The notes beneath the pieces were generated by a model that worked only from the letters and a program-made list of their open reading frames with translations, was not told the DNA's origin and made no database searches. Below are positions 19,897 to 61,922 of a DNA stretch of 64,000 nt, piece after piece. The DNA comes from Dictyostelium discoideum. Its lineage: Eukaryota. The stretch lies in the NCBI GenBank assembly GCA_000004695.1, contig CM000150.2, forward strand, positions 1,664,001 through 1,728,000, read 5' to 3'. The translations under genes and the position numbers were made by a program. The first letter of the stretch is position 1. The number at the start of each line of letters is the position of its first letter.

Positions 19897-19899
<3 letters not shown>

Positions 19900-21943
19900 A
19901 AAAAGATTCATTTACTTTTTTTGTTTATATTCATATTAACAATAATTACAATAACATTTTTTAAAAATTCAAATAAACCAGAATCAATTAAAAATAATAG
20001 AAACAATTACAACAATAACAACAACAACAACAATAATAATAATAATAATAATAATTTTGATAATGTTAATAAAAATACAAATAATAAAATTGTAGTTAAT
20101 CAATTTCAAGATCAAAATAATAATAATAATAAATTTTATAATGATGAAAGATTAAAAAAAAATCATCAAAACAATGGTCAAAATGATAATAATAAAATTC
20201 CACAACATGAAAATTATTTAAAAAAGAAAAGATCACCAAGACCACAACCAACTTTTAAAAAATCAAATAATAATAATGATAATAATAATTTATTAGAAAA
20301 ATTAGAAAATAAAATTCAAATAATAAATAATAATAATTCAATTGAATTTTTATCAATGAATAAAATTAATTGTGAAAATGGTGGAATTGGATTTTCAAGT
20401 AAATGCATTTGTTCTTATGGATTTAATGGTGACAGATGTGAGATTATTGATATAAATAATGCATGTACACAAGTAAAGATGAATATTGAGTATCTCTATA
20501 ACCCAAATTTAGTATCCTCTGATAAATGTATATCAAGTGCACCAAGTATTTGTTGTTGGTCAAAGTTTAGAACCATTTCAAATATTTCTTTAACAAAATT
20601 ACAAGATTCAACTCATTCAGATTTAAATCAAGTTCCACAACATAATGATATAATTAAATCAATTTTAACAAGTTATGGACCATGGACTGAAAATGACAAG
20701 AAAATGATAAGTTATCTAATTAAATCAAATGATAATGATATCACTTATCAATTAAAATATAATACAAATCATTTCATGTCAAAACACGACCAACATGATA
20801 ATCATAAAAAACCAAAATTAGCATTTGTCTTAATGATTCATAAAATTGATTTAGAAGCTTTAAAATTATTATTTGATAATATTTATAAACCAAAACATTA
20901 TTATGTTATTCATAGTAAGTAAATAATGAATGTGATAAACAAACTATTATTAAAAAATTACTAACAAATTAATATATATATAGTTGATAATAATTTTAAA
21001 GATGAAAATTTAATTAATCAATTGAAATCATTTATAAATAAATTATATGAATTAAAAATAAAGAATAATATATTATTAAATTCAAATTATCCAAATAATA
21101 TTGAGATTTTACATACAAGATTCGATGGTGCATGGGGTTCAATTGCTTTAGTTTATAGTGAAATTGCATCATATACAAAGCTATTTGATATGTTAGAACA
21201 TAGACATTCAATAACTGGTAGAAAAGAGAAATGGTCACATGTAATTAATCTCTCAATTAATGATTTTCCAATTAAAACAATTGAAAAATTAGAATATTTC
21301 TTTGCAAGTAATGGTAATATTAAAAGAAATTTCTTAAATGAAGAAGATAAAGAAAAAGAAATTATTAGATATAATGTAAATATTTATTGATTTATTTAAT
21401 TAATTCTATTTTAAATTTTAATTATTAATAAAAATAAATATATATATATATATATAGAAACCATGGGTAGAATGTAAAACAATTGAAGATGGTAAAAGTA
21501 ATATTGTTGGATTTAATTTTCAAAATAATGATGATAATGATGAAAATAGTGGTATTTGTGGATGTTCAGGTATGGAACATACAATGGATAGAAGTAAATA
21601 TAAAGAAGGATCACAATGGCATTTTTTAACATATAAATTTGCAAATTATTTAATTTCAGATTTTAAAGCAATTAAAAGATTATTCTCTATGAAGTTCTCT
21701 TATATTCCAGACGAATCATTCTTTCAATTGGCAAAGAGCGAATCTTATTTTTTCAATGAAACTGATAGTTGGGATTTCTCAAATTATAGATTCATCCCTT
21801 GGTATAATAGTGCAATCGGTTTAAAAGTTGGTTTAGAAGAAGTTGAAAATAATTTTAATAATCAAACTTGGAGTTACTTTACTCGTAAAGTTTATACAAC
21901 TGATGTTAAAAATGCAATAATTGAAAAATATTTAAAAGATTAA
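19897..21943 (+). CDS. Glycosyltransferase family 14 (core-2/I-branching type) with N-terminal signal anchor and an EGF-like domain. 3 exons: join(19897..20914,20984..21375,21458..21943).
   Basis: Signal anchor MKKIHLLFLFIFILTIITITFF. EGF-like CENGGIGFSSKCICSYGFNGDRCE. The GT14 Branch-domain motifs are spread over the 3 exons and rejoin in frame: KLAFVLMIHK...YYVIH|IDNN (exon 1/2, phase 1, GTAAGT...tatatag), ...WGSIALVYSE...WSHVINLSINDFPIKT (exon 2), and GSQWHFLTYKFANY (exon 3, after AAT|GTAAAT...tatatag). Confidence 0.7.
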
Positions 21944-22234: not shown

Positions 22235-22317
22235 CCGGCTTTGGCGCAATGGTAGCGCGATTGACTGTAGTATTGAAAGTGATCAATCGGTTGCTAGTTC
22301 GAATCTGGCAAGCCGGA
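22235..22317 (+). tRNA. tRNA-Tyr (anticodon GUA) with an 11-nt intron 3' of position 37
   Basis: Cloverleaf: acceptor CCGGCTT/AAGCCGG, D-arm GCGC-AATGGTA-GCGC, anticodon stem ATTGA/TCAAT, loop CTGTAG[intron TATTGAAAGTG]A, variable CGGTT, T-arm GCTAG-TTCGAAT-CTGGC, discriminator A. A T-run follows. Eukaryotic tRNA-Tyr genes universally carry an intron at this position. Confidence 0.85.
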
Positions 22318-22324
22318 CTTTTTA
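22318..22324 (+). terminator. Pol III terminator T-run after tRNA-Tyr
   Basis: cttttta directly after the discriminator base. Confidence 0.5.
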
Positions 22325-24221: not shown

Positions 24222-24293
24222 GGCTCCTTAGCATAGTGGTATTGCGCTTCCCTAGTAAGGAAGAGGTCATGAGTTCGATCCTCATAGGAGCCT
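24222..24293 (+). tRNA. tRNA-Thr (anticodon AGU)
   Basis: Acceptor GGCTCCT/AGGAGCC, D-arm GCAT-AGTGGTA-TTGC, anticodon stem CTTCC/GGAAG with loop CTAGTAA, variable AGGTC, T-arm ATGAG-TTCGATC-CTCAT, discriminator T, then TTTTTTTT. Confidence 0.85.
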
Positions 24294-58975: not shown

Positions 58976-59140
58976 TCAATTGACGGAGAAAATTGTGGAC
59001 ATATCGGTGAACTATCCAAATTATCTTGACATGTACACAAAAAGATTTTTTAAAAGGTGCTTGTGTTAAAGTGTCTTTTTGTGACATGTCCAAAGAGTTT
59101 GGATAGTTAAATGGCGATATCCACAATTTTCTCCATAATT
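58976..59140. repeat. Long imperfect inverted repeat (hairpin-forming, ~65-bp arms, ~30-bp loop) in the intergenic region 3' of the AAAP transporter gene
   Basis: Left arm ...ggagaaaattgtggacatatcggtgaactatccaaattatcttgacatgtacacaaaaag is roughly 80% complementary to the right arm ctttttgtgacatgtccaaagagtttggatagttaaatggcgatatccacaattttctcc... Confidence 0.6.
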
Positions 59141-59391
59141 TTTATTTATATTTTTTTTTTTTATTTTTTTTATCTAGTTTAATCAATAAAATTTAATTAA
59201 TTTCTAAAATCTGATGTTTGTTTTTTTTTTTAATTAAATTCTGCATCTAAAATTCTTATTTCAATATGTAATGGGATCACTTGAAAATCATTTAAAAATT
59301 ACTGATCAAATTATAATTAATCATATTAATATTAATTTAATTTTAAATATTATTTTATTTTATTTTATTTTTTATTTTATTTTTTATTATT

Positions 59392-61879
59392 TTATTTATT
59401 AAATATAACTACATAAATATCATATAATACTGCAAATGTAAAATAAAAAAAGACAGGATAACGTAACATATAAACTTTTTGAGGTAATTCAGCAGGAATT
59501 GGATAATGACCATAATTATTTCTTGAATTTGTAATCATTACATACATTGCCCAACCAGCTATCATATTTAAACCAAAACTTGTGCCAGTTTCCATAATGA
59601 ATAAGAAACCTCTTGGGTTTAAAAGTGCAACCAATAGAATGAAACCAAAGAATAATGTATAGAATAAATATTCTCTAATGGGTATACGAACAATTGCTGA
59701 AGAAGTTTCCCAAGTTGATTGACCTTCTTTTGAATCAATAAAAGAATTTATTAATCTTAGTTTATCATTAAACCAAAATTTAACTTTTCTAGATTGATTA
59801 ATCGATGATTTTAGTATATTTTGTTTAGCAACTTTAAATTTTGTTGAAATTTTTGATCTATAATTTATATTACTACCACCACCACTTGTAATATGTGGAG
59901 AAGAAGGTGAAGATGTTGGATTTGAAGTTGAATGATAAAATTCATTTGTAAAATCTTCCAATTCCTCTTGATCATTTATATCATTATGAATTTGATGATG
60001 GTGGTGGTGGTGGTGGTGATGGTGTTGTTGATTATCGTCATCATCACCATCATAATCGATATCATCATTTTCATCATGATGAGAATTTGATAAACTTTTT
60101 GTTCTCCAAGTATTTGAGAAACCATCTAAAGTATGTTTAAAACCACAACCAACTGAAATGAAACTAATGGTGATTGAAAGGGAGCAGAATAAGTTTACAA
60201 CATTTGCAATCCAAAGGAATTGTGGATAATATAAACTAATGACCTTCATTAAAGGTACTGTCGCAATTTCGCCATTCTTTGCTGCATTTGCAAGTGATGG
60301 CATATTTGGATTGGCTGGGTCTGGTAATTGTGGTATGATATTCAATAAAAAATAACACCAAATAATATTCAATACATAAACTGTAAATAAGGCAGCACCC
60401 GAAACATAATAACATTTAATAATTTCTTTACGAGTGAATACAATCTTTGGAAATACAACTGGCAATGTACTACTCGCCCCGCCCAATGCAATCGTCGAAA
60501 TTAGTAATGATTTTCCAATATAAGAGAAATCATTACTAATATCATTATGAACATGATTCGATACAATACCAGTTATAAATACAATTACAACTAATAATGT
60601 ACCCTTACCAAATGTACAAAATGTAATTACATGTTGTAATGTTTTTGATCCAAAAATAATTATACCTGTTAATATAACAATAACTGGTAAAATTAAATAA
60701 TGTTGCATTGATTCATCAATTTTAAATAATAATGAATATGATTCTGTTCCTGCTAAACCATATCCAATTAAAACTGAACAACTTTAAAAAATTATAAAAA
60801 TAATAAATAATAATATTAATATAAAATTTTAAAAATACTTTGTAATTATAATTTTTTTTTTTGTAAGTTGTATACGATTATAATTACTTACAAATGTAAA
60901 AGTCCAGAAAACATAAAAATAAAATAAGAAAATCTACCCATAAATTTTGTACCAATATTATGAAGATTTGGAGTTTGGTCATGTTGAGTTGGTGGTGGTT
61001 GTTGTTGTTGTTGTAGTTGTTGTTGTTGCTGTTGTTTCTTTGTTGAAGATAACATTGGACTATCTTCAAAACTAACATTACTCTTTTGATCATTATTATT
61101 ATTTATTAATGTTGGTGGAGAAGATCTAATTGATGAATTATTAGATGATTTATTTTTATTATTATTATTATTACTATTACTATTATGATTATTTAAAGAA
61201 TCAGTTGATTCTGATAAATCATTAATTTCATAATTATTATTTGTATTATTATCATTATTATTGTTAATTATATCTGGTGATAATATACTACTTTGAGTTG
61301 GTTCAATTTTTTGTAAATCTAATGATATTGAACCATCAATATCATTATTACTACTACTATTAGAGATTGTTGGTATGGTGGTTGAAAAGTTTGATTTAAT
61401 AATTGCATAAGCTCTTTGTAAAATTTCAATCAAGAAAAACATTGATATTAGTTGCATGAAAAAACATAAAGTATATGAGGACACAAATGGTGTAAAACCA
61501 CTTTGACTTAATTTCACTGGCAATCCAAGAATACCTGTACCCAATACCGATGCTATCACTATAAAATATAAATATGCCATTACTAAAAATGGGGTTTTTT
61601 TATTTTCTTCATTCATATTTTTATCATTATCACTATCATTATTATTATTATCATTATTAATATTGGTTATTTCATTATTATTTCTATTATTTAAAATATC
61701 ACTAAAATCAATTTTATCACTGCTACCACCACCATTAATATTAATTCCACTATTATTCCTTTTTAATGTAGTTTTATTATCTTGACTTTGTAATAATTTT
61801 TTATAGCTATCTTCACCACTATTTGTTAAATTATTTTCTCCAGTAATTATTGAATTACTACCACTTATCTCTTCATTGT

Positions 61880-61912
<33 letters not shown>

Positions 61913-61922
61913 TGATATTCAT
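59392..61922 (-). CDS. Amino acid/auxin permease (AAAP, SLC36/38-like Aa_trans) transporter. 2 exons: join(61922..60892,60781..59392).
   Basis: N-rich N-terminus. The family motif FIVIASVLGTGILGLP and multiple TM segments span both exons. The junction CAT TT|GTAAGT ... tttaaag|T is phase 2 and gives ...LLHF CSVLIGYGLAG... There is a cytosolic loop with His10 (HHHHHHHHHH) encoded by (CAC/CAT)n at ~59995-60030. Confidence 0.65.

Follow-up and report, generated by a model that had tools for sequence, protein, structure and literature searches.

Behind a transporter gene of Dictyostelium discoideum, in DNA that is otherwise extremely AT-rich, lies an imperfect palindrome of about 150 nt, and the question that it raises is what kind of locus, if any, it represents. 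An earlier reading made from the sequence alone had suggested either a precursor of a miRNA or other hairpin RNA, or a foldback element of the MITE type; a structured part of the neighbouring transcript, a small protein gene and an inert duplication have to be weighed as well. Here, we analyse the palindrome within its window (the whole 64-kb stretch of D. discoideum DNA under study) using folds with shuffled controls, comparison with a second strain and with related dictyostelids, and searches of miRNA catalogues, Rfam, protein collections and metagenome contigs. We tentatively favour a lineage-specific hairpin-RNA locus, single-copy in the accessible DNA, that resembles a pre-miRNA and may serve as a DrnB/RbdB substrate if it is transcribed.

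Structure and composition of the palindrome

The spacer that holds the palindrome measures 1,239 bp and is bounded by two genes of the minus strand. As had been noted, the palindrome lies 3' of the transporter, 257 nt beyond its stop codon at 59392, and on the other side it precedes, by 832 nt, the start codon (ATG) of the gene for a conserved, lysine- and proline-rich protein of 62 aa (MTSTQNLKDKFEE/EIRQQKEG...SLSQLP). The genes and the parts of the palindrome are as follows:

59392-61922, minus strand: gene of an amino-acid-permease-like transporter (Trp_Tyr_perm/Aa_trans), exon ORFs 60888-61922 and 59392-60708
57883-58152, minus strand: gene of the conserved 62-aa protein, with exon 1 at 58114-58152, a GT..AG intron and exon 2 at 57883-58032
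58985-59134, plus strand weakly favoured: core imperfect palindrome (hairpin) of 150 nt, from RNA and DNA folds and the strain comparison
58985-59047, plus strand: 5' arm, from the arm alignment and the hairpin drawing
59072-59134, plus strand: 3' arm, from the arm alignment and the hairpin drawing
59048-59071 (about 59046-59073), plus strand: apical region or loop with weak predicted pairing, from the folds

The sequence-only reading had set the limits of the palindrome at 58976-59140, in intergenic DNA, and had described arms about 80% complementary over some 65 nt, with bulges and a loop of about 30 nt. This description is confirmed with a core that is slightly narrower, as the original limits consist of the core at 58985-59134 plus a weak extension of about 5 bp. 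The arms, of about 61-63 nt, are identical at 52 of 66 aligned positions (79%) with three small indels, and the central part of about 28 nt is weakly self-complementary. The base of the stem is perfectly paired over 15 bp, between the first 15 nt of the 5' arm (GGAGAAAATTGTGGA) and the end of the 3' arm.

The stability of this structure, for which a comparison with shuffled controls had been proposed, proved to be extreme. Folded as RNA in a 176-nt context (58970-59145), the plus strand reaches -69.5 kcal/mol, against -31.7 +/- 4.1 kcal/mol for 200 dinucleotide-preserving shuffles, none of which (0/200) was as stable (z = -9.3). The z-score is -9.4 for the minus strand RNA (-64.5 kcal/mol) and -10.4 for the hairpin as DNA, and the hairpin is retained when folded within a context of 321 nt. 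Taken by itself, the core forms 64 bp on the plus strand (18 GC, 40 AU and 6 GU) with -68.0 kcal/mol, and 56 bp on the minus strand (1 GU) with -60.7 kcal/mol. Among the 1,596 windows of 170 nt folded across the 64 kb the hairpin ranks first, and D. purpureum and P. violaceum DNA, of which 32 kb was folded, reaches -45 kcal/mol at best, far short of it; no other fold in this total of 96 kb of dictyostelid DNA is as strong. The palindrome is thus real and statistically exceptional. The second-strongest fold of the window, at 59921-60090 (-56.9 kcal/mol), lies inside the transporter coding sequence and was rejected as an RNA gene: here (GAT)n and (CAT)n codon repeats, encoding poly-Asp and poly-His, pair mutually and produce a low-complexity artefact.

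In agreement with what had been noticed earlier, the hairpin is GC-richer than its surroundings, with 34% GC as compared to 12.4% for the other 1,077 nt of spacer sequence. This value even exceeds the average of the coding DNA in the window, in which GC amounts to 35, 31 and 13% at codon positions 1-3.

Could the palindrome then be coding? Two short reading frames overlap it, one of 51 aa on the minus strand (58971-59126) and the following one of 39 aa:

58950-59069, plus strand: ATG ORF of 39 codons over the 5' arm, judged spurious

A small protein gene would find some support in the plus-strand frame, which starts 35 nt before the palindrome and spans its entire 5' arm, but we consider such a gene highly improbable. 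The CAI of the 39-codon frame, 0.382, is below that of all 200 real 39-codon gene chunks of the window (minimum 0.396), its GC3 of 0.38 is three times the gene mean of 0.127, and the mirror arm is frameshifted and carries a stop. Protein collections of 5.8 billion or 1.84 billion entries, searched for both frames, contained no word-sharing candidates for the 39-aa product (as a query brought to 40 aa by including the in-frame codon before the ATG) and gave 0 HMMER matches for the 51-aa product, and exact look-ups of both products found no recorded gene call. Absence from the word-based search is weak evidence, as this search may miss the closest relatives. Queried with the enolase of the window, it found the proteins of both D. 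discoideum and D. firmibasis; with the transporter as query neither species was represented, even though D. discoideum strain GCA_054883475.1 has a call for an 806-aa gene at the transporter position.

Comparison with miRNA genes and other hairpin RNAs

Most miRNAs of D. discoideum are intergenic, Pol II-transcribed and DrnB-dependent, and they often follow a T-rich tract that ends in G. The AT content of dictyostelid miRNAs and other ncRNAs is far below that of intergenic DNA. Amoebozoan precursors usually have a length of 75-125 nt and can extend to more than 200 nt, and accepted ones of 150-164 nt exist. Of the approximately 30 miRNA loci known in D. discoideum just one is common to D. firmibasis, and between these species whole miRNA modules have been gained or lost in spacers.

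To judge the hairpin, we used the structural part of the miRNA criteria from Liao 2018, after Kozomara & Griffiths-Jones 2014; the full set also demands 10 or more reads for each of 5p and 3p, a 3' overhang of 0-4 nt, a common 5' end in 50% or more of the reads and, in drnB- (or rbdB-) cells, disappearance of the small RNAs together with build-up of the precursor. [quoted passage not shown] The best of the predicted duplexes is:

59024-59044, plus strand: predicted 21-nt 5p (UCUUGACAUGUACACAAAAAG), with its partner at 59077-59097 (UUUUGUGACAUGUCCAAAGAG) and 3 unpaired positions in total

The earlier proposal of a miRNA or hairpin-RNA precursor therefore stands in part: geometry, energy per nucleotide, length and GC content fit published dictyostelid precursors, but the arms match nothing in the miRNA lists that we checked. 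There was no match to the 7 stringent D. discoideum miRNAs or to the other amoebozoan miRNAs and precursors of Edelbroek 2024, in a search tiled so that any 21-mer that the plus-strand arms could yield includes one of the substrings used. The arms were likewise absent from the 10 new loci of Liao 2018 and from the supplements of Meier 2016, and Hinas 2007 has no sequence matching the hairpin. Among 7.7 million full texts, arm 12-mers retrieved only chance matches to primers. In a near-complete assembly of D. discoideum the locus is situated about 3.16 Mb along a 4.79-Mb contig, with 1.63 Mb beyond it, and we take this contig to be chromosome 1. On this placement it is away from the coordinates of mir-7103 and mir-1181 (0.27 and 2.72 Mb). 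Small RNAs of D. discoideum have been sequenced deeply, so that an abundant and precisely processed miRNA at this site would probably be listed, and the absence from the stringent catalogues argues that the hairpin is at best weakly or imprecisely processed. There is also a slim chance that it is one of the few loci of Avesson 2012 (17 miRNAs) that were not relisted later.

Rfam adds no family assignment. At the hairpin it returns sub-threshold scores of 22 and 20.7 bits, where the cut-offs are 70 and 74, and these are at the level of chance. A mir-598 match at 59997-60066 on the plus strand (37 bits, cut-off 69) was discarded as an artefact of the CAT/GAT codon repeats in the transporter coding sequence.

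How does the hairpin compare with known systems? In size and stability it is much like ddi-mir-1177, with 150 nt and about -0.45 kcal/mol per nt as compared to 151 nt, -65.5 kcal/mol and -0.43 per nt. With the intergenic miRNA genes of D. discoideum, which depend on DrnB/RbdB and Pol II, it shares the intergenic position, a GC content above that of the spacer and an imperfect stem with small bulges. It differs from them in having no sequence similarity to the listed miRNAs and in the distance of its nearest strict T-run-then-G motif, 580 nt upstream.

[quoted passage not shown] However, these young miRNAs have near-perfect duplexes whereas the arms of our hairpin are 79% identical, and in contrast to the plant model no parent or target of extended complementarity is present within the 64-kb window, as the 45 matches with at most 4 mismatches fall inside the shuffle range of 2-77. 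Long hairpin loci that yield endo-siRNAs, such as the Skipper-fragment hairpin of D. discoideum and the hpRNAs of Drosophila, are also inverted repeats and would resemble the locus in giving dsRNA if transcribed. The Skipper-fragment stem is about 320 bp, however, whereas the stem described here spans some 64 bp below a loop of approximately 28 nt; it is several-fold shorter than those of described hpRNAs and does not appear to be repeat-derived.

Copies, strains and relatives

Hairpins that derive from MITEs or foldback elements, including the thug-S miRNAs of D. discoideum and MITE-derived miRNAs of plants and animals, are palindromic, non-coding and short with perfect termini, and in all these respects the locus is similar. 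A miniature, non-autonomous DNA transposon, with the arms as TIRs for a transposase encoded elsewhere, would indeed explain two long inverted repeats with perfect 15-bp ends in a small non-coding unit, as well as the appearance of an insertion relative to D. purpureum; the known derivation of some D. discoideum miRNAs from a repeat, thug-S, sets a precedent. This reading is nevertheless improbable, as the hairpin is single-copy in the accessible DNA. No second copy was found in the 64-kb window, either with 22-mers at up to 3 mismatches or with short-word BLAST and tBLASTx, which gave A/T-run noise only; there is none in 21 kb of D. firmibasis DNA, and the paired 15-nt termini have 0 matches in metagenome contigs. 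Neither candidate boundary shows the direct repeat of a target-site duplication (the left flank ends in ...CAATTGAC, the right one starts with ATAATTTT...), and the same sequence occupies the same site in two strains. With copies, metagenome relatives, target-site duplication and strain difference all lacking in this survey, the foldback half of the sequence-only reading finds little to sustain it. The element is also not thug-S itself, which is a multi-copy transposon that bears its miRNAs in an intron, whereas the hairpin is spacer sequence that occurs once in the accessible DNA.

Several partial resemblances were followed and rejected. Inner anchors of 11+11 nt have 13 metagenome matches, which are unrelated to the hairpin, with local alignment scores of at most 23 to its 150 nt. 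A seeming third partial copy at 58790-58845 scores 27, as compared to 22 +/- 2.3 (maximum 30) for shuffles, and is attributed to chance. The same holds for a similarity of 20/22 nt between the loop (59044-59065) and the reverse complement of 20243-20264, in the ORF at 19897-20922: its score of 34 compares with 30.3 +/- 3.3 (maximum 38) for shuffles, and the segment is T/A-rich.

In the second D. discoideum strain, GCA_054883475.1, a 21.5-kb stretch aligns to positions 41743-63299 of the window at 99.6%, and the hairpin is present there at the same site with 100% identity. Since the whole aligned region of 1.35 kb around it has zero substitutions and just three homopolymer-length differences between the strains, this identity says nothing on constraint. 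The differences are at 58233-58241 and 58344-58349, in A-runs that are shorter by 9 and 6 nt, and at 58624-58630, in a 44-nt T-run that is shorter by 7. The listed gene calls of this strain include none at the position of the 62-aa gene, which may be unannotated there.

This gene pair is likewise adjacent, and identically oriented, in D. purpureum, where the 65-aa product encoded beside the transporter is 62% identical to the 62-aa protein over 47 aligned residues. The AT-rich spacer between them is 270 bp long and contains no hairpin. With a spacer of 1,239 bp in D. discoideum, this comparison indicates that the hairpin is lineage-restricted and that the spacer has expanded, in keeping with the turnover of whole miRNA modules described in the literature.

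The most serious alternative to our preferred reading requires no function. Template switching or fold-back during replication or repair could have copied about 65 nt of GC-richer sequence into an inverted duplication, which then decayed neutrally. Coding DNA of D. discoideum and D. firmibasis is 81-88% identical, whereas alignable intergenic DNA is 68-79% identical with many gaps, so that the arm identity of 79% with its 3 indels lies within the neutral range and fits a duplication of approximately the age of the split between these species; it is equally compatible with an older, imperfect stem under constraint. An inert duplication would also be consistent with the absence from the accessible miRNA catalogues despite deep sequencing, with the lack of a conservation signal in D. 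purpureum and the two strains, and with the finding that both strands fold about equally, as expected for a palindrome at the DNA level. However, a GC content of 34% demands an unusual source sequence, and searches of the window revealed none; a perfect basal stem of 15 bp below a diverged interior is not what uniform decay would produce; and GC islands outside ORFs are in this genome mostly exons or RNA genes. Taking both sides together, we regard a functionless duplication as possible but unlikely.

The D. firmibasis DNA used for comparison also shows a local difference in gene content. The enolase of the window is 89% identical to its D. firmibasis counterpart, as against 99% to a protein labelled D. 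discoideum, and between FancD2 and enolase the D. firmibasis stretch has two tandem genes (7257-8036, 165 aa, and 8730-9501, 163 aa), both of which align to one D. discoideum region, at about 36841-37773 of the window. From these alignments, the pair appears to be a lineage-specific tandem duplication or loss. FancD2 itself is present in the window; the D. discoideum gene fncD2 is DDB_G0268216 (PMC2730050).

Predicted transcription and processing

Which strand would be transcribed? The plus strand is weakly favoured as hairpin RNA, because it has 6 G-U pairs where the minus strand has 1, a difference worth 7 kcal/mol. Two plus-strand motifs in the spacer could delimit such a transcript:

58379-58405, plus strand: T-run followed by G (ATTTTTTTTTTTTTTTTACAATAAGTG), putative start from a motif scan, about 580 nt before the hairpin
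59185-59190, plus strand: AATAAA, 51 nt after the hairpin, the sole plus-strand poly(A)-signal hexamer between hairpin and transporter

The scan looked for some 25 nt of T-rich sequence with a final G, as taken from Table S3 and the main text of Liao 2018, and 58379-58405 is the only strict match in the spacer; looser T/A-rich tracts that end in G are found nearer to the hairpin on both strands. AATAAA hexamers also follow the hairpin on the minus strand. In DNA with 88% AT, promoter-like and poly(A)-like motifs have low specificity, and these flanking signals leave the strand undecided. Runs of U6 and U5 within the apical region argue against transcription by RNA polymerase III.

A minus-strand RNA could instead arise by read-through from the transporter gene, and the hairpin would then be a structured element of that transcript, acting in 3'-end formation, stability or localisation. 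The hairpin is close behind the stop codon, one of its two possible RNAs has the polarity of the transporter mRNA, no minus-strand T-rich start motif separates it from the gene, and read-through between pri-miRNAs and neighbouring genes is documented in D. discoideum. However, six AATAAA hexamers occur within 40 nt after the transporter stop, well before the hairpin, so that the transporter mRNA probably ends before reaching it; in addition, no hairpin follows the orthologues in D. purpureum and P. violaceum, and the minus strand has the weaker fold. A role as part of the transporter transcript is therefore very improbable.

For the hairpin-RNA locus that we prefer, transcription, strand, dicing and any target are what we infer. 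Pol II would transcribe through the element, most likely on the plus strand, from a start within the AT-rich stretch that it would share with the divergent small gene to an end after the AATAAA at 59185. The nuclear DrnB/RbdB microprocessor might then dice the stem to RNAs of about 21 nt, and the stem has room for as many as three consecutive 21-nt duplexes. Since the hairpin is missing from the stringent miRNA sets that were checked, it is most likely a hairpin whose expression is weak or conditional, a proto-miRNA module with imprecise processing, or an older catalogued locus. A more specific proposal, a previously unannotated small-RNA gene in the form of a nascent miRNA module from which DrnB would cut one to three phased 21-nt duplexes, at a low level or under unsampled conditions, appears rather doubtful to us. 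If true, it would offer a snapshot of miRNA birth in a group in which miRNA turnover is unusually fast.

For the birth and loss of miRNA genes in D. discoideum, the locus may be informative in either case. Should DrnB process the hairpin, the locus would serve as an instructive example of an early or marginal miRNA module. Should it be silent, it would demonstrate that pre-miRNA-like hairpins occur without entering the pathway, and would help to gauge the reliability of predictions that are made from structure only. At most the hairpin adds to a known class of locus, and it does not indicate a new mechanism.

Finally, the window contains possible signals of other small RNA genes. The consensus [AT]CCCA[CT]AA, which we take to be the DUSE-like upstream element of small ncRNA genes in Dictyostelium, matches exactly at 54332 and 60936 on the plus strand, and a version with one mismatch (ACCCATCAA) is found at 58545-58553, some 430 nt before the hairpin. 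At gathering scores, Rfam identifies two tRNAs and nothing else across the 64 kb. One of them, at 22235-22318 on the plus strand (Rfam tRNA, 57.8 bits), is called by ARAGORN as a tRNA of undetermined identity with a 4-base anticodon, gtag, and is probably a miscalled intron-containing tRNA; 2 kb downstream, at 24222-24293, lies a normal tRNA-Thr(AGT).
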